Assembly: GCA_963704755.1 (NCBI GenBank)
Contig: OY969938.1
Span: forward strand, 2,640,001-2,672,000
Source: an uncultured Chloroflexia bacterium
GTDB lineage: Bacteria; Chloroflexota; Anaerolineae; Anaerolineales; Anaerolineaceae
DNA: 32,000 nucleotides
Reading direction: 5' to 3'
Shown: in pieces, positions 17,937 to 30,340 of the stretch
Numbering within the stretch: the stretch's first letter is position 1
How the letters are laid out: the number at the start of each line of letters is the position of its first letter
Notes under the pieces: generated by a model
The model's input: the letters and a program-made list of their open reading frames with translations, nothing else
Database searches by the model: none
What the model was told of the DNA's origin: nothing
Program-made: the position numbers and the translations under genes

Positions 17937-17998
17937 CACTGAATCACGGAATCACCGAATCACTAAATCACCGACCCTGACATCCGACACTTAATCAC
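17937..17998. repeat. Family B repeat: four tandem octamers NRAATCAC followed by a CCCTGACATCCGACAC motif
   Basis: tgaatcac ggaatcac cgaatcac taaatcac (17940-17971). The same motifs (CTGAATCACCGAATCAC, CCTGACACC) occur at 25085-25118. Confidence 0.75.
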
Positions 17999-19875: not shown

Positions 19876-21414
19876 CTACGCCGCCGATCCCTCCAACCCC
19901 GCCTGCAAACCACCCTCGGGCGTCCACTCCAGCCGCTCGAGCACAACGGCCTCATCCAGCCAGCCGGGGGTGACCTGGGCCCGCCGGCCGGCCGGCGCCT
20001 CCGCCAACCCCAACGGGCGTCCACACAGGCTGCGGAGCTTGCCGTCCGCCGCGATCAGGCACTCGACCGGGGTGCCCTTTGCCAGGACGTAGATTTCCAG
20101 TTCGCGCTGCGGGCTGACCCGCGCCAGCAGGCGCCGGCCATCCGTGCTGCCGGCTTGCAGCAGGTCCAGCAGCTCGTCCCGGCAGGTACGCAGGCTGTCC
20201 TTCCATAACAGGGTATAGCCGCTGACCGGCGTCTTCCAATGCACGCCGTTGAGGAACTGTCCGCCCAGGCCCGGGCCGGCCAGCTCTTCGATCCGCCCGG
20301 CCAGGGGTTCGACCCCCACCAGGTAGAAGTTTATATCAGCCAGCCCGCCGGCCAAGCTGACCCACTGCGAGCCGTTCCAGCTTTTCAGTTGCCCGCCCGG
20401 GTAAGCGTCGCTGTCTTCACGGAAGACCTGGTAGTAATTATCGTTATCTGCCCCGCCGCTGCGGCTCAGTTTGAGCCAGTATTGCTGCCCGGGCTGGATG
20501 CTCACCGGCTGGTCGAAGGCAAAGTGGACGTACCAGCGCCCGCCCTTGATCGCCTCGGCCGGCAGGCTGGCCTGCGCCAGCACGCCGCCCGGCGAGCCGC
20601 CGGCATCGCTGCACAACGCCAGGGCCAGTTCGTCCGCGCAGGCGTTGACCACTTTCAAGTCCAGGGCCACCTCGCTCAGCAGCCAGGGTCCATATCCGGT
20701 CTGGAAGCTCTGCGCCAGCACGGCGTCCAGGTTGGCCGTGCGGCCCAGGCTTTGCGCGTTTTGGGCCGGTTCGACGAAGCCCTCGTAATCCAGGTGAATC
20801 TCGGGATAAACCCAGGCCAGGGTGGAGAACCAGCCGCTGCACAGCAGCCGTACCTGGGCGGTCTGGGCGGGCAGCAGGCCGGTCCAGGGCCGGGTAGCCA
20901 TGGCCGGCAGCGGCGCTGCGGCCGCCTGCAAGCGGGCATCTCGCGCCGACAGGGCCTCGGCTTCCAGCAGCGAGCCCATTTGCAGGATGCTTTCTTTACG
21001 GCCGAAGCTGCGCCGGCTGTGGCCGTCCTCGGCCCAGGGGGTCAGGCAGGTCTCGCCGGCCCAATCGACGGCCGGCCGGCGGCGGTGATAGAGCACCGCC
21101 GTGCGGTTGGCCAGCTCATCCAGGTCGTAGGCGCAGGTCAGCCCGCCGTAGGCAATTTCGATCCGGCGCACGAAACCCCACCAGCAGGCCTGCCCGTCCC
21201 CGGTTGAAATCAGCACCGGTTTTCTGAGCATGTCCGGCGCCCACTGCGGAAAATTCAGCCCTTTCATTAAAAGGGAGATCTCGCCTTGCAGTTCGGCCTG
21301 TTCCGGCCCGCCCATGGCGGCCCAGCTCATATGCTTTACCTGCAAGTCGAACTCCGGCAGGATGGCCGGGCTGTCTTCACGGTGGAAGAATTGGATAGTC
21401 AAGGGCTCGTTCAT
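19876..21414 (-). CDS. Phage-like structural protein of unknown function (tail/receptor-binding candidate)
   Basis: 512-aa ORF with high coding-like GC3. Its start overlaps the upstream gene's stop by 4 nt (21411-21414). No motif recognised; it is the last gene of the module. Confidence 0.6.
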   Translation of the reverse strand: MNEPLTIQFFHREDSPAILPEFDLQVKHMSWAAMGGPEQAELQGEISLLMKGLNFPQWAPDMLRKPVLISTGDGQACWWGFVRRIEIAYGGLTCAYDLDELANRTAVLYHRRRPAVDWAGETCLTPWAEDGHSRRSFGRKESILQMGSLLEAEALSARDARLQAAAAPLPAMATRPWTGLLPAQTAQVRLLCSGWFSTLAWVYPEIHLDYEGFVEPAQNAQSLGRTANLDAVLAQSFQTGYGPWLLSEVALDLKVVNACADELALALCSDAGGSPGGVLAQASLPAEAIKGGRWYVHFAFDQPVSIQPGQQYWLKLSRSGGADNDNYYQVFREDSDAYPGGQLKSWNGSQWVSLAGGLADINFYLVGVEPLAGRIEELAGPGLGGQFLNGVHWKTPVSGYTLLWKDSLRTCRDELLDLLQAGSTDGRRLLARVSPQRELEIYVLAKGTPVECLIAADGKLRSLCGRPLGLAEAPAGRRAQVTPGWLDEAVVLERLEWTPEGGLQAGLEGSAA

Positions 21415-22751
21415 GGAGTTGCATACCTGGCGCCGTAAGCGATGCGCACCCTCAGGCTGTCGTTGACCGGCATACCCGCGTCCGTTTCGAAAAGGAAATA
21501 GACCCGGTTAGGCCGCCCGGGGTGCAGATACAGCGGCTGGCCCACCAGGGTATGGCTGGTGGACCGGCTTTCGCCGTCTGCGTCGCAGCTATAGACCTGC
21601 CCGTGCGGGCCATCCAGGACCAGTTGCTGAGCCTGGGAACAGCCGCTGATCGCCCGCAGCATGGCCCACTGTTCGGTGGGCAGGAGCTGCATGAAGTCCA
21701 GGCTCAGCCGGCGGCCGGCCGGGTCGGGACTTTCGCCCCACAGTTCTAGCGTCAGCGGCCCGTAACTGCCGGCGCTCGACGGCACCGGCGGCAGGTTGAG
21801 CGCCGGCCCGACTGCCATTGAGCTGCCCGCCTCGACCCGCGTCTGGGCGGTCTGTTCCAGCACCGCGCTGTTTTCGCACAGCTTCCAGCGCAGAAAGGTC
21901 GTAGTCGCCGGCGCGTTGTTCAGGCGCAGCACCGGCCGGAAAGCCCGGCCGGCGGCATAGCCCAGGCGGGCCGCATCCAGCTCCCAGGTCAGCAGTCGGG
22001 CTTCTTCGTCGCCCTGCCAATCCACCTGGCAGCAGGCGCCGTTGCTGCAATCGTCTGAGGGCAGGACCTGAACCTGCCCGGCAGCGCTGCCGGGGCTGGC
22101 CAGTTCGCCTTCCAGCACGTGCGCAAAGGCGCCCTGGCTGTCCCGCAGGTCCGTCCCGCCGGCCACGATCACATCCAACAACCGCCGCTGCGGGGCCGGA
22201 CCCAGGTCGAGCGTCAGGGTAGCCGGAGCCGGCAGTGAGCCGGGCAGGTCTTCGGGCAGGATATCGACATAATTCTGGTGACCGGCGGTCCCGTCGCAGT
22301 GGTTGAGCACGGCCAGGCCGTTCCAGACCCCCGCGCCGTTGGCATTGTGCAGCGGCAGCATATTGCCCGGCTCGTTCCAGTTATTCTCGCGCAGCAGGAA
22401 AAGGCGCAGCCCCTGGAACCCGTGCATGCGGTCGCTGGTGCCGTGCCCCAGCAGTTCGATCCGTCCGTCCAGCACCCGGCTGGTCAGCGGATCCTCCCGG
22501 CTGGCCGCCTGGATTTGCAGAAAAATCTCCTCGTCCCGGCCCCGGGCCAGGGCCAGCCACTTTTCCAGTTGGTACAGCCAGGCGCGGATGGTGCTGCCTT
22601 TGAGATCGATAAAGATCTCTTCCTCGACCAGGTTTGTCCCGGCCGGGCGTGGCCCGGCCTCGATGCGCGCCCCGCGCACCGGCTCCACCGGTTCCGGCCC
22701 GTGCAGCACAATCCCGGTTCCATCGATTTTTCGTAAAGATAGTTTGTACAT
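21411..22751 (-). CDS. Phage-like structural protein of unknown function (tail/baseplate candidate)
   Basis: 446-aa ORF translationally coupled to the 512-aa gene. No motif recognised. Confidence 0.6.
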   Translation of the reverse strand: MYKLSLRKIDGTGIVLHGPEPVEPVRGARIEAGPRPAGTNLVEEEIFIDLKGSTIRAWLYQLEKWLALARGRDEEIFLQIQAASREDPLTSRVLDGRIELLGHGTSDRMHGFQGLRLFLLRENNWNEPGNMLPLHNANGAGVWNGLAVLNHCDGTAGHQNYVDILPEDLPGSLPAPATLTLDLGPAPQRRLLDVIVAGGTDLRDSQGAFAHVLEGELASPGSAAGQVQVLPSDDCSNGACCQVDWQGDEEARLLTWELDAARLGYAAGRAFRPVLRLNNAPATTTFLRWKLCENSAVLEQTAQTRVEAGSSMAVGPALNLPPVPSSAGSYGPLTLELWGESPDPAGRRLSLDFMQLLPTEQWAMLRAISGCSQAQQLVLDGPHGQVYSCDADGESRSTSHTLVGQPLYLHPGRPNRVYFLFETDAGMPVNDSLRVRIAYGARYATP

Positions 22752-22771
22752 GGTTCCTCGGAAGAAGAGCG

Positions 22772-23100
22772 GTTAGCTCTTAGCTTTTAGCGGTTAGCTC
22801 TTAGCTCTTAGCTTTTAGCTGTTAGCGGTTAGCTCTTAGCTCTTAGCTTTTAGCTGTTAGCTATTGGCTTTTAGCTGTTGGCTCTTAGCTATTGGCTGTT
22901 GGCTGTTAGCTTTTAGCAGTTGGCTGATGGCTTTTAGCGATTAGCTATTGGCTGCAGGCGATTTACTCTCGGCTTTTTGTCCTTAGCTTTTACTGGCACC
23001 TTGGCCGATAGACTAAACGCTAATGGCTAACAGCTAACAGCTAACCGCTAGCCGCTAACAGCTAAGCGCTAAGCGCTAACCGCTACTCGCTAAAAGCTAT
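22772..23100. repeat. 47 in-phase heptamer units: about 26 clean NTTAGCT/NTTGGCT units, a degenerate centre, then about 13 units of the reverse complement (NNGCTAA)
   Basis: Parsed by hand. The left side reads gttagct cttagct tttagcg gttagct ... to 22953. Degenerate units run to ~23009. The right side reads agactaa acgctaa tggctaa cagctaa cagctaa ccgctag ccgctaa cagctaa gcgctaa gcgctaa ... to 23100. The 7-nt phase is never broken. Confidence 0.9.
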
Positions 23101-23533
23101 TCCACCCCGTCGGTTGCGGATCTTTTCCATCCGGGTAGGGTGGGTCGGCGGACTTTTGCAGCCCGGCCAGCCGGTAGCTTTGCAGGCTCGCCAGAGCCTT
23201 TTCGAAGCTGGCCAGTTGGGCCTGCCCGGCCTGCAGGGCTGCCTGCGCAGCGGCCTGGTCGAAGTGAAAGGCTGCGAGCTGTTCGGCCGAGCGGGTGATC
23301 AAGGCATAGCCCAACGCGCCGCGGATGATCAGGGCAAAGTGATGCCTGGAGAAATTGGTCGGGTTGCTTTCACCGTCCAGGCCTTCCAGCACCCACACCT
23401 GCCCGGAAGCATTCAGCAGGTCCTCGTAGGCCTGGCGGATGCCGGCGATCAGTTCCGCGTCGCTCCATACCAGTTCATTGGGATCGGCCAGCGCATCGCG
23501 CATACGTGCCACAATTTCGTCGGTGTCGCTCAT
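23090..23533 (-). CDS. Small phage-like protein (head-tail adaptor/connector candidate)
   Basis: The ATG at 23533 overlaps the lysozyme stop (ATGA overlap). The N-terminus MSDTDEIVARMRDALADPNELVWSDAELIAGIRQAYEDL resembles gp6-like connector N-termini. The assignment is tentative. Confidence 0.55.
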   Translation of the reverse strand: MSDTDEIVARMRDALADPNELVWSDAELIAGIRQAYEDLLNASGQVWVLEGLDGESNPTNFSRHHFALIIRGALGYALITRSAEQLAAFHFDQAAAQAALQAGQAQLASFEKALASLQSYRLAGLQKSADPPYPDGKDPQPTGWNSF

Positions 23534-24327
23534 GAGGTATGCAGCTCCGGGTGGGCCTGCCATAGCAGGCGTAGTATTTCTTCGTCGCTGATCTCAAGCG
23601 CCGGCTCGCCGGCCGGGACCCGCCCGCACCATTCTTCCAGGTCGGCGGGTGTGCCGTTGAACAGGTTCAGGTCAAGGGCCGTGCTGCAGCCCGGCAGGAC
23701 GAAACGGTCGCCGCTGAACTGCCAGAAAGCCCACTCCCGGCAGCCTTTAGGCAGCGGCGGTCCTTTTGGGGTGGGCAGCAGGTCGTTTTGCAGCTCCTCC
23801 CAGGTGGCCTGGATGCGCCCGGCCGGGTAGGGATATTGGGCCAGCCACAACGGCCAGCCGGCCAGCCAGTCCAGCATCGGGCGGGCGTAATCATTGACGA
23901 AGGACGTGCGGGTGTAGATCAGCACCGGTTTAGCGCAGGCCTGGCGCAGTCCCTGGGCTACTGCCAGGGCCGATGCGCTGATCTGCTCCGGCGAGGCCAG
24001 CCCGGCCACTTTGCCGCTCAGCCATTCGTTCCACGAGCTCCAGTACTGCTCCACGTCCACGGCGGCGAAGTCGAAGGCCTGGTTGGCGACTGCCTGGCAA
24101 AAGTTATCCACCTGGCGCTGGGCGTTCAGGGTCGGGTCGCACCAGTGATACACCCCGGTGATCATCCCGACTGACTGGGCCCCGCTCAAGTGCATCCCCA
24201 GGGCCGAATCGCGGCTGGCGCTGCCCTGGCTGGCTTTGGCGATTGCAAAACGGACACCGGCGGCGGCCAGCAAATCCCAATCGACCTGCGGCTGCCAGCG
24301 GCTGACGTCTATACCTAATGTGTGCAT
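23530..24327 (-). CDS. GH25-family muramidase (endolysin)
   Basis: GIDVSRWQPQVDWDLLAAAGVRFAIAKASQG and FAAVDVEQY motifs typical of GH25 lysozymes. A strong RBS AAAGGAGA lies upstream of the ATG at 24327. Confidence 0.85.
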   Translation of the reverse strand: MHTLGIDVSRWQPQVDWDLLAAAGVRFAIAKASQGSASRDSALGMHLSGAQSVGMITGVYHWCDPTLNAQRQVDNFCQAVANQAFDFAAVDVEQYWSSWNEWLSGKVAGLASPEQISASALAVAQGLRQACAKPVLIYTRTSFVNDYARPMLDWLAGWPLWLAQYPYPAGRIQATWEELQNDLLPTPKGPPLPKGCREWAFWQFSGDRFVLPGCSTALDLNLFNGTPADLEEWCGRVPAGEPALEISDEEILRLLWQAHPELHTS

Positions 24328-24865: not shown

Positions 24866-25131
24866 TGCAGTGGTTCGGTGTTCCTGTGTTGCGGTGGGGA
24901 GGTGTCAAATGTCGGGGGGGTGTTGCAGTGATTCGGTTTTACGGTGATTTAGTGGGGTGTCAGGTGTCGGGGAAGTGTTACATTGATTCGGTGTTACATT
25001 TTTGGGGTGGGTTAAGGGTCTCGACAGGTCACTCCAACATCCTGGCGCTTCAAAACTGAAGAACTGTCGCACCAAAACACCTCCCTGACACCTGAAACAC
25101 TGAATCACCGAATCACTGCAACACCTCCCCC
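24866..25131. repeat. Family B: nested direct and inverted repeats forming a long imperfect hairpin
   Basis: The left arm 24914-24977 (gggggggtgttgcagtgattcggttttacggtgatttagtggggtgtcaggtgtcggggaagtg) pairs with the right arm 25078-25131 (cacctccctgacacctgaaacactgaatcaccgaatcactgcaacacctccccc). Extra direct copies of gcagtgRttcggt and ggtgtcaNNtgtcgggg lie at 24866-24917. Confidence 0.8.
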
Positions 25132-27065: not shown

Positions 27066-27295
27066 TTTTTTCTCCTTCCCCCTTAATGAGGAAAGGCCGG
27101 GATGGGGTTTGCGCTGATCGGCTCGAGCATTTGCCTGTCCGTAACGCCTCTTACGTTTCTTGCTCCTTCCCCCTCGCAGGGGGCAGGCCGGGATGAGGGT
27201 TTGCGCTAGTTGGCTCAAGCATTTGCCTGCTTGTAACGCTCCTCAAGTTTCTTTCTCCTTTTCCCTCGCAGGGGGCAGGCCGGGATGGGGTCTTC
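27066..27295. repeat. Family A: about 2.5 tandem copies of a ~90-nt unit between the portal and capsid genes
   Basis: Unit 2 (27155-27246) is tttcttgctccttCCCCCTcgcAGGGGGcaggccgggatgagggtttgcgctagttggctcaagcatttgcctgcttgtaacgctcctcaag. Unit 1 (27066-27154) is a diverged copy. Unit 3 (27247-27295) is partial and overlaps the portal stop codon. Confidence 0.85.
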
Positions 27296-28726: not shown

Positions 28727-30340
28727 TCAGAATCCCCGGTCCAGGTCTTTCAGTGGGTCGCGGGCGGGCACCACCAGCGTCTCGCCGCTGCTCGACCAGG
28801 GCTGCTGGTCCAGCAGCGAACACAGCGCCGCTGAAATGACCAGGTCGTCGTGCACCAGTTCCCCGTTTTGCGGGTCGCGGGTCCCATCCGGCACCCCCCA
28901 ACGCATGCGCTTATCCGTCCCCGGCAGGATCTGGTATTGGCAGAAGGAGAGTTGTTGCTTGAAGAGAGAATGGAGATTGGAGAATAGAGAATAGTTGGCT
29001 CTTTCGCGGCCTTCTGGCCTTTCTTTACTAATCTCTACTCTCTTTTCACTATTCTCTTCTTTTGGCTCTTTCCATCTCCCGCTATCGATCACCGCCAGGA
29101 AGTCCCAGCCCAGTTTGCTTTTGCTGGACGAGTTGAACAGGAACGGCAGCACCTTGCCGGGAAAGGCCCGCCCGAGGAAGCTGGCCAGCCCGGCTCCAAC
29201 ACCGGTGGCATCCACCACCAGGTAGCGCGCTCGCCAGGTCTCGGCCAGGCCGCGCAGGTCGTTGTACAGTTGGGTGTGGCGCACCCCCACCCACTGGCGG
29301 CGCAGCACGCAGCGGTAGGTAGGCGCCTGCACCAGCGGATCGGCCAGCGTGGCCAGGTCCACCTCGACGATCGTCAGCGCGGTCGCATCCCGGCCCGGGT
29401 TGTGCAGGTTCCAACTGCCCGGGTCCAGGTTGGATTCGGCGCTCTCGTCGATCCCGGCCACGTCCAGCAGCAGAGCGTAGATACGCCCGCTCGATGGCTG
29501 TTGCTGTACGGCATGGTTTCCCTGCATCCGTTCCAGGCGGTCCGGCGGGAACATGCCACCTTCGCTGTCGATCTCCTCGCTGAAGAACTGGGTACGCACC
29601 ATCGGGTTGAAGCGTCCCAGGCGGGCCACCTGCTCGGCCACGAATAGGCCATATTTGGGCACTTCCGCGGCCACCCGGTCGGCGTCGGCCTGGAAGACCC
29701 GCCGGCGTCCATCCCGTGCCTGAGCTTCGCGTGAGCCGCGCAGCTCGCGCGCCAGCAGCGTCCGGCTGGTCCAGGCCGTGCCCCAGAAAACGCGCGTGGC
29801 GTTGGTCGAGGCCGCCATAGGCGCGATTTCCTTGTCGTATTTGGCGATCTCCACGTCCTGGGCTTCGTCCACTTCCAACAGTGCGCTGGCGGTGGCCCCC
29901 ACGATGTTGGCCTCCTTCGAGCCGCTCAAGAAGAAAATCCGCGCCTGGCCGACCCGGTAGATGTAGCCGGATTCCTTCTCCCAATCGCCCTGCACCAGCG
30001 GGTTTTTGCGCAGCACTCGTTCCAGGCGGCGCATGGCGTTGATCGATTGCGGTTTCAGGGTGGGTGAAATTTTGATGATTTCGGCGTCCGTCTCGTGCAG
30101 GTAAGTCAGCAGGTAGGATTCGAGTTGGGCCTGCACTTCGTTCTTTCCGGATTGGCGCGGGAAGAGCACCACGAAGCTCAGCCCCTGCTTGAGGATGACC
30201 GATTCGGCGATCGCCCGGATCACTTCGGTCTGGTAACTGCGCAGTTTCAGGTGAGCACAGGCTGCCGTGAAGGCAACCGGGTCTCTCAATATGCTTGTCA
30301 CCGGGGGAACCAACGTTTCGTCAACCATAATCATCCTCAT
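28727..30340 (-). CDS. terL: Terminase large subunit
   Basis: Walker A FPRQSGKN and Walker B LLEVDEAQD. Nuclease-domain acidic motifs ALLLDVAG, YLVVDATGVG and HDDLVISAALC. 537 aa. Confidence 0.85.
   Translation of the reverse strand: MRMIMVDETLVPPVTSILRDPVAFTAACAHLKLRSYQTEVIRAIAESVILKQGLSFVVLFPRQSGKNEVQAQLESYLLTYLHETDAEIIKISPTLKPQSINAMRRLERVLRKNPLVQGDWEKESGYIYRVGQARIFFLSGSKEANIVGATASALLEVDEAQDVEIAKYDKEIAPMAASTNATRVFWGTAWTSRTLLARELRGSREAQARDGRRRVFQADADRVAAEVPKYGLFVAEQVARLGRFNPMVRTQFFSEEIDSEGGMFPPDRLERMQGNHAVQQQPSSGRIYALLLDVAGIDESAESNLDPGSWNLHNPGRDATALTIVEVDLATLADPLVQAPTYRCVLRRQWVGVRHTQLYNDLRGLAETWRARYLVVDATGVGAGLASFLGRAFPGKVLPFLFNSSSKSKLGWDFLAVIDSGRWKEPKEENSEKRVEISKERPEGRERANYSLFSNLHSLFKQQLSFCQYQILPGTDKRMRWGVPDGTRDPQNGELVHDDLVISAALCSLLDQQPWSSSGETLVVPARDPLKDLDRGF

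Follow-up and report, generated by a model that had tools for sequence, protein, structure and literature searches.

Heptanucleotide repeats in tandem, the STRR heptamers of heterocystous cyanobacteria, were reportedly described by Mazel et al. in 1990. Their unit types, STRR1-3, read CCCCAGT, TTGGTCA, and CAACAGT. Here, we describe a 329-nt array of heptamers at positions 22772-23100 of a 32,000-nt stretch of the chromosome of an uncultured Anaerolineaceae bacterium (contig OY969938.1, positions 2,640,001 to 2,672,000; this whole stretch is referred to as the window). The array lies between two genes of a phage-like operon, and its units switch polarity. We consider it probable that it represents the largest member of a genome-wide family of ~60-75 intergenic TTAGCNN arrays, which grew secondarily by slippage, and that it is no dedicated signal of the phage operon.

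Comparable heptamers are GGGAATC of Xanthomonas and GGGGA(C/T)T of Nostoc PCC 7120, which occur in 2-26 copies and in 90-190 arrays per genome (Rehm et al. 2015, PMC4692102). Most of these arrays are intergenic and located ~50 bp or less from gene ends. Their G-rich strand is antisense upstream of open reading frames (ORFs) and sense downstream of stops, and each genome holds 70-75 convergent pairs capable of forming stem-loops or cruciforms, the function of which is unknown (PMC4692102). The arrays are transcribed in Xanthomonas, and heptanucleotides of Calothrix PCC 7601 are cited in the same study (PMC4692102). A further example is the direct repeat TAACTGA found in Beggiatoaceae, cyanobacteria, and Bacteroidetes (MacGregor 2015, PMC4679880). 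It shows a lineage-specific, patchy distribution, and related strains differ by indels in steps of 7 nt. With 2-6 copies, its sets are short; most are oriented toward the downstream start, and only one inverted set was reported (PMC4679880).

The array in the window is a very large member of this known, functionally unexplained class, as judged from the fixed 7-nt tandem unit, the many dispersed arrays in the genome, their mostly intergenic position near gene ends, and their agreement with the orientation rule of Rehm et al. Like the Xanthomonas and Nostoc heptamers, the arrays are intergenic 7-nt tandems that carry the G-richer strand outward and form convergent pairs. Unlike those, the TTAGCNN unit has no G-tract and hence no G-quadruplex potential, the window pair is far larger (26 + 13 units, 329 nt), and a secondary origin can be demonstrated, the junction being gap-free in relatives. 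With the TAACTGA repeats, the arrays share the intergenic position, the stop codons in three frames, and a frequent overlap with the upstream stop or an end just before the downstream start; they differ in pointing away from the nearest gene and in commonly forming inverted pairs. The resemblance to STRR repeats drawn in an earlier note on this DNA holds as an analogy, since both are tandem heptanucleotides dispersed in the non-coding DNA of a filament-forming lineage. An identity with the cyanobacterial STRR repeats was rejected because the unit differs and because HIP1 sites, a test for a cyanobacterial genome, were not enriched (146 GCGATCGC sites compared to ~105 expected).

The array and its genome-wide family

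The array was resolved into exactly 47 heptamers, starting at 22772, in a single phase that two arms would share across the turn by chance in one of seven cases. In agreement with the unit count, phase, and polarity switch given in the earlier note, 26 TTAGCNN-type units are followed by 8 decayed units and 13 NNGCTAA units. Tandem Repeats Finder (TRF) detected both arms, and the core TTAGC or GCTAA was present with 0-1 mismatch in 38 of the 39 arm units.

The forward arm (22772-22953, plus strand) comprises units 1-26 of the form NTTAGCN, mostly TTAGCTN. All of these contain at most one core mismatch except for unit 23, which contains two; variants with a TTGGC core (TTGGCTN) build up nearer the centre. 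TRF called this arm by itself at 22768-22954 (period 7, 26.7 copies). It abuts the start of a 446-aa gene, with 5′-TTAGC-3′ directed away from that gene. Within the arm, a higher-order duplication was found at 22786-22855 (plus strand): units 3-7 (22786-22820) make up a 35-nt block that recurs as units 8-12 (22821-22855) with an identity of 34/35, and TRF also called periods of 21 and 28 over the array holding this duplication. Such a pattern points to recent multi-unit slippage or unequal exchange.

The centre (22954-23009) consists of the eight degenerate units 27-34. Units 27-32 are decayed forward-type units, with unit 31 being exact, so that the real non-repeat turn of the hairpin spans only ~14 nt (22996-23009, units 33-34). 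In a blastn search against the genome, the central spacer matched only itself. The reverse arm (23010-23100, plus strand) contains the 13 NNGCTAA units 35-47, all with at most one mismatch, and was called by TRF at 23013-23093 (period 7, 11.6 copies). On the minus strand it reads TTAGCNN, directed away from the end of a 157-aa gene, which it overlaps.

The 7-nt period places stop codons in every frame: TTAGCNN contains TAG in all three frames of one strand and NNGCTAA contains TAA in all three frames of the other. The array is therefore non-coding on both strands, as the earlier note had stated, and the same property confines such arrays to non-coding DNA.

To place the array among its relatives, the whole chromosome (a single contig of 4.87 Mb with 54.8% G+C) was searched for arrays of at least four units with at most one core mismatch per unit, the reversed word serving as control. 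This census yielded 76 TTAGC arrays compared to 23 for the control; a stricter pattern of three TTAGCTN units with up to two mismatches gave 220 matches in the genome and 2 in the reversed control. The window array was the longest in the census (25 + 13 scored units), the second longest having 17 units. Genes were defined as 3,712 ORFs from a rough caller ranked by codon-usage score, which mis-called the portal gene in the window. By these calls, 67 of the 76 arrays were intergenic, many of them with a start or stop codon at a distance of -4 to +22 nt.

The orientation of the arrays was strongly biased. 5′-TTAGC-3′ pointed outward from the nearer gene in 57 cases compared to 10 (p = 4 × 10−9), both at starts (31:6) and at stops (26:4), and solo arrays followed the same orientation. 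Where inverted arrays were adjacent, 12 pairs were TTAGC-first and one was opposite. In such pairs, each array typically ends ~22 nt or less from the gene on its side, and the pair together with its contents fills the spacer. Given the 57:10 and 12:1 ratios, polarity inversion is the rule in this genome. It had been regarded as unusual in the earlier note, which had also suggested a genome search for such arrays and had taken a broad occurrence as a sign of generic repeat DNA; the presence of such arrays at dozens of unrelated intergenic sites fits the latter, and convergent pairs have already been described in Xanthomonas (PMC4692102).

An orientation test free of post hoc choice covered every intergenic array of period 7-9 called by TRF for which one gene was clearly nearer (118 arrays). 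The outward strand contained more G than C in 102 arrays compared to 15 (p = 4 × 10−17). The ratio was 70:13 when the TTAGC family was left out, and in the full set it was 54:6 for start-proximal and 48:9 for stop-proximal arrays; repeat-free intergenic flanks displayed skews of merely 0.06 and 0.02. Other 7- and 8-nt families detected by TRF include GAATAGA, CAGGTGT, AGAGAGT, ATTCAGTG, ATTCGGTG, AACAAGGC, and AATGAGGC. The outward placement of the G-richer strand is common to at least eight unrelated 7-8-nt families in this genome.

Some inverted TTAGC pairs bracket other dispersed repeats, namely at G000:C1:1997476-1998271, 2867219-2867847, 3021284-3021792, and 4152728-4153087. The bracketed repeats share segments of 35-42 nt with 93-100% identity and comprise GTTGGGTTACGGGC-type and poly-C/poly-G hairpin elements; other repeat families may preferentially land in the centres of heptamer pairs. 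Short GCTAA-type heptamer runs were also noted at G000:C1:1219987-1220233 between apparent tandem copies of a tRNA gene, as judged by the T-arm-like GGTTCGAATCC on the opposite strand.

Beyond this genome, five consecutive TTAGCNN units were found at no fewer than 80 genome loci of many phyla, among at least 120 matching stretches. The pair polarity in the loci listed from other phyla was ~3:1 (23 vs 8, including some overlap artefacts). Viral contigs contained 58 such stretches, compared to 25 and 50 for the control heptamers CGATT and TAGTC of the same composition. Because control heptamers are similarly common, we read the broad occurrence of TTAGC as a sign of how abundant heptamer repeats are in general. 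On the same counts, TTAGC was rejected as a special family that spreads across phyla or is carried by phages. Among genomes of the same genus (56-99% complete), TTAGC arrays were absent from all 22 searched and GAATAGA arrays from all 15 searched. The proliferation of TTAGC arrays thus looks lineage-specific among the genomes searched.

The operon junction and the origin of the array

The array occupies the whole 338-nt gap between two genes encoded on the minus strand. The upstream gene (23090-23563) encodes a 157-aa phage-module protein of unknown role, for which the label 'adaptor-like' used in the earlier note is backed only by a weak match to phrog_399 ('structural protein', E 0.004). Its TAG stop (23092-23090) lies inside unit 46, confirming that this gene ends within the last units, and its last three codons (Asn-Ser-Phe) together with the stop consist of array sequence (units 46-47). 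The protein accordingly ends in ...PTGWNSF, whereas its relatives end in ...AGG or ...EGG. The downstream gene (21411-22751) encodes a 446-aa protein of unknown function, a conserved partner of the 157-aa gene, for which no Pfam or PHROG family match was obtained. Its ATG (22751-22749) starts 21 nt past the last array unit and is preceded, 2 nt upstream, by a Shine-Dalgarno-like GAGGAA (22754-22759, minus strand).

Both genes belong to a phage-like module that also encodes a capsid protein (PF25209), a GH25 lysozyme, a portal-like protein (Pfam match below threshold, 21.8 bits with a cut-off of 32.9), and a terminase nuclease domain. A syntenic module is present in a complete genome of the same family (G247), with a capsid protein of 47% identity, a 141-aa protein with 30% identity to the 157-aa protein, a 448-aa protein with 23% full-length identity to the 446-aa protein, and a 499-aa protein with 26% identity. 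There, the two junction genes overlap as TAATG. Searches with the capsid profile retrieved 65 metagenomic relatives and 48 on viral contigs. The 446-aa protein has metagenomic and viral homologues of 38-40% identity; used alone as query against viral contigs it gave no match, and these relatives were reached through the capsid alignment.

In 11 of the 12 related metagenomic or viral modules examined, the gap at this junction ranged from -4 to +4 nt. The closest relatives read ...GGGTGGGTAA-CCC-ATGTAT... where the window reads ...GGGGTGG-[array]-GAGGAACC-ATGTAC.... According to this alignment, the array has taken the exact place of the ancestral spacer and stop, and a Shine-Dalgarno sequence was newly acquired by the downstream gene. 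As 11 of 12 related modules have the two genes either overlapping or separated by no more than 4 nt, the array is a secondary expansion, which by comparison of these sequences arose after the module had diverged from its relatives. The remaining module, on a viral contig (L237:4287-4524), carries unrelated repeats over 236 nt at this junction, namely an inverted array spaced by 8 nt (TTACTTAA-type), three copies of TTTATCCACAGG, and three palindromic copies of 23 nt. As these repeats differ from those in the window, at least two expansions of the junction took place, with lineage-specific repeats in each case.

The two arms were compared at their free NN positions. In register, the window arms displayed 11 matches compared to 11.2 ± 1.0 under the null (P = 0.77), and ten pairs pooled displayed 71 compared to 66.5 ± 2.9 (P = 0.09). 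With free positions that are not mirror-complementary, the arms are independent arrays, no inverted duplication, and their complementarity stems from the common 5-nt core. An origin of the arms by inverted duplication, or their selection for pairing, was rejected because the free positions were no more complementary than those of shuffled arms.

These data are consistent with the following scenario. Each arm would be an ordinary array in the usual orientation of this genome, with TTAGCNN, the G-richer strand, pointing away from the gene that it abuts; as two arrays grow from both ends of one spacer, the facing arms would become complementary through the 5-nt core alone. Growth would proceed by replication slippage or unequal exchange, in single units and in multi-unit blocks. 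Slippage is suggested by the 35-nt block duplication and by the published indels in steps of 7 nt (PMC4679880). The 338-nt insert is predicted to fold into one long imperfect hairpin within the polycistronic mRNA of the minus strand. It is probably tolerable because it is looped out and because the downstream gene is provided with a ribosome-binding site of its own; influences on the stability, the processing, or the read-through of the mRNA would be incidental. We infer both the folding in vivo and the near-neutrality of this copy.

Other gaps of the module were also filled with repeats. A 92-nt unit in 2.2 tandem copies (27094-27291) fills the portal-to-capsid gap. Octamer arrays of the ATTCGGTG/CACCGAAT and CACTGAAT families (24866-25126 and 17937-17974) were noted, with an inverted pair filling the gap between the capsid gene and a holin-like gene; genome-wide, these two families were oriented outward in ratios of 6:2 and 8:3 (strict) or ~4:1 (looser). 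Nearly every intergenic gap of the module holds host-type repeats (heptamer, octamer, or 92-nt), where the G247 module has tight or overlapping junctions instead. A GAATAGA array of 4.9 copies (28961-28994) lies within the minus-strand terminase-like ORF (28727-30340), in the part downstream of the RNaseH-like nuclease domain. Its coding strand, TCTATTC, is free of stops and encodes ...NYSLFSNLHSLF... in a low-complexity stretch, so that it appears to be a heptamer repeat tolerated within a coding region. The capsid relatives (40-72% identity, 65 metagenome loci and 48 viral contigs) include several that lie deep within very long, apparently chromosomal contigs (L138, L151, L155, and L175; 370-790 kb). 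The module may be a widespread, possibly domesticated element, no recent prophage.

Alternative explanations

As an unlikely alternative, the hairpin may have been selected as a cis-regulatory element of the phage-like operon at the RNA or DNA level, setting apart the head and lysis genes on one side and the two large distal genes on the other. It would act as an attenuator, a processing site for RNase III or RNase E, a barrier to 3′-exonucleases, or a cruciform. Folding predictions bore out the statement in the earlier note that a very long imperfect hairpin is possible: the minus-strand RNA reached -156.5 kcal/mol compared to -108.9 ± 4.6 for shuffled sequences (z = -10.3), and the plus strand as single-stranded DNA reached -86.6 kcal/mol (z = -8.9). 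The predicted RNA fold is one long imperfect hairpin that spans the full spacer. The stop of the 157-aa gene is located at its 5′ foot, and the Shine-Dalgarno sequence and AUG of the 446-aa gene are unpaired just beyond its 3′ foot, in both the minimum free energy and the centroid structures. This stability, the exact position of stop codon and Shine-Dalgarno sequence at the two feet, and the structured repeats in other gaps of the module would suit an operon element. However, no spacer exists at this junction in 11 of 12 related modules, the same repeat occurs in dozens of unrelated spacers, and the free arm positions display no compensatory matching. A scan of the array region revealed no intrinsic terminator, no terminator-like U-tract, and no sigma-70-like promoter, and Rfam gave no hit above threshold in this region (miRNA-model noise reached ~20 bits, with gathering scores of 80-100). 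The region thus qualified neither as a known structured RNA nor as an intrinsic terminator. The roles in head/tail transcript processing, packaging, or replication proposed in the earlier note are contradicted by the occurrence of the repeat at dozens of unrelated sites and by the 11 of 12 gap-free relatives.

We judged it quite improbable that a mobile foldback element, similar to a miniature inverted-repeat transposable element (MITE) or a REPIN, was transposed into the junction as a unit. Such a transposition would account for array growth at an ancestral junction of at most 4 nt, which gives slippage no seed, and for the inverted polarity occurring almost exclusively one way (12 vs 1). Several other pairs bracket further dispersed repeats, and the genome encodes six members of the Y1-transposase family (PF01797). 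Yet none of these six genes has a TTAGC array within 1.5 kb. The centre of the array is unique and bears no relation to the short spacers of other pairs; longer spacers of other TTAGC pairs share dispersed repeats with each other, none with the centre described here. Arm lengths range freely from 4 to 26 units, solo arrays share the orientation rule, and neither a target-site duplication nor a conserved terminus was visible at the borders. A MITE or foldback transposon was therefore rejected on account of the unique centre, arms that are no mirror copies, and the lack of a border duplication.

Two further classes of inverted repeats were considered. REP, BIME, and REPIN elements are likewise dispersed extragenic inverted doublets forming intergenic hairpins and are often transcribed within operons, but REPs are imperfect palindromes of 20-40 nt with a fixed sequence, in contrast to the phased 7-nt microsatellite found here, and RAYT genes have REPs of their own on their flanks. 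A REP/REPIN-RAYT assignment was rejected, since the Y1-transposase genes, though present, are unassociated with TTAGC arrays. On the cassette strand of integrons, an attC site has the inverse core RYYYAAC followed by the core GTTRRRY. An attC site was rejected because GTTAGCN precedes NGCTAAC in the array, the reverse of this order, and because position 6 is C rather than a purine; no search for an integron integrase was made.

Very little weight can be given to a third alternative, in which the arrays act as directional insulators. Untranslated transcripts that enter a gene from outside would carry the G-poor, C-richer strand of the repeat, on which Rho might load. A pair inside an operon would then be safe only with its G-rich arm first, because its C-rich arm would be base-paired once made. 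The outward G excess of 102:15 across all repeat families and at gene starts and stops alike would agree with this, as would the inverted pairs that are nearly all G-rich-arm-first and the presence of a Rho gene (102.8 bits). The proposal is nevertheless pure inference. The inward TTAGC unit (e.g. CAGCUAA) has a modest C excess with few YC dinucleotides, and start-proximal arrays are part of the 5′ leader of the adjoining gene, which would be harmed if Rho loaded there.

Finally, an assembly artefact, i.e. a collapsed, expanded, or chimeric simple repeat, is scarcely conceivable: assemblies often contain errors in simple repeats, and the copy number derives from the assembly alone, but the array measures just 329 nt within one contig of 4.87 Mb, its flanks are intact, syntenic, and co-oriented, and over 70 other members of its family occupy comparable positions.

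Four points weigh against the reading favored here, i.e. secondarily grown arrays of a genome-wide family. (i) The ancestral junction of 3-4 nt offers slippage no seed; as slippage needs one, the first units may have come from an insertion or recombination event. (ii) The array length and copy number are known from one assembly alone, and slippage is deduced from the repeat pattern; an exact 31-nt pattern of flank plus first unit found no near-identical metagenome contig. (iii) Errors in gene calling blur the distances between arrays and genes, yet they should not create an orientation bias. (iv) The strict orientation is hard to square with purely neutral repeats and hints at a directional constraint or function.

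Implications for heptamer repeats and operons

By itself, the array is an extreme but otherwise ordinary case of a class of repeats which, although familiar for decades, still lacks an explanation. Its junction provides a before-and-after case for the origin of such repeats and for their tolerance in operons: heptamer arrays can invade the 0-4-nt stop/start junction of a conserved operon and extend it to 338 nt, with both genes remaining unbroken. It follows that intergenic 'palindromes' of this kind in the prophage-like regions of this genome should not be taken as signals for phage packaging, replication, or regulation.

The orientation rule observed here, together with that of Xanthomonas and Nostoc, argues for a general, sequence-independent constraint. 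We regard it as unlikely that the outward position of the G-richer strand reflects a directional function or constraint common to bacterial heptamer microsatellites in general, perhaps an insulation against incoming untranslated transcription through Rho loading on the C-richer inward RNA. If this were true, an inverted pair with the G-rich arm first would be the sole arrangement tolerated inside operons, and the window pair would be a natural test case.

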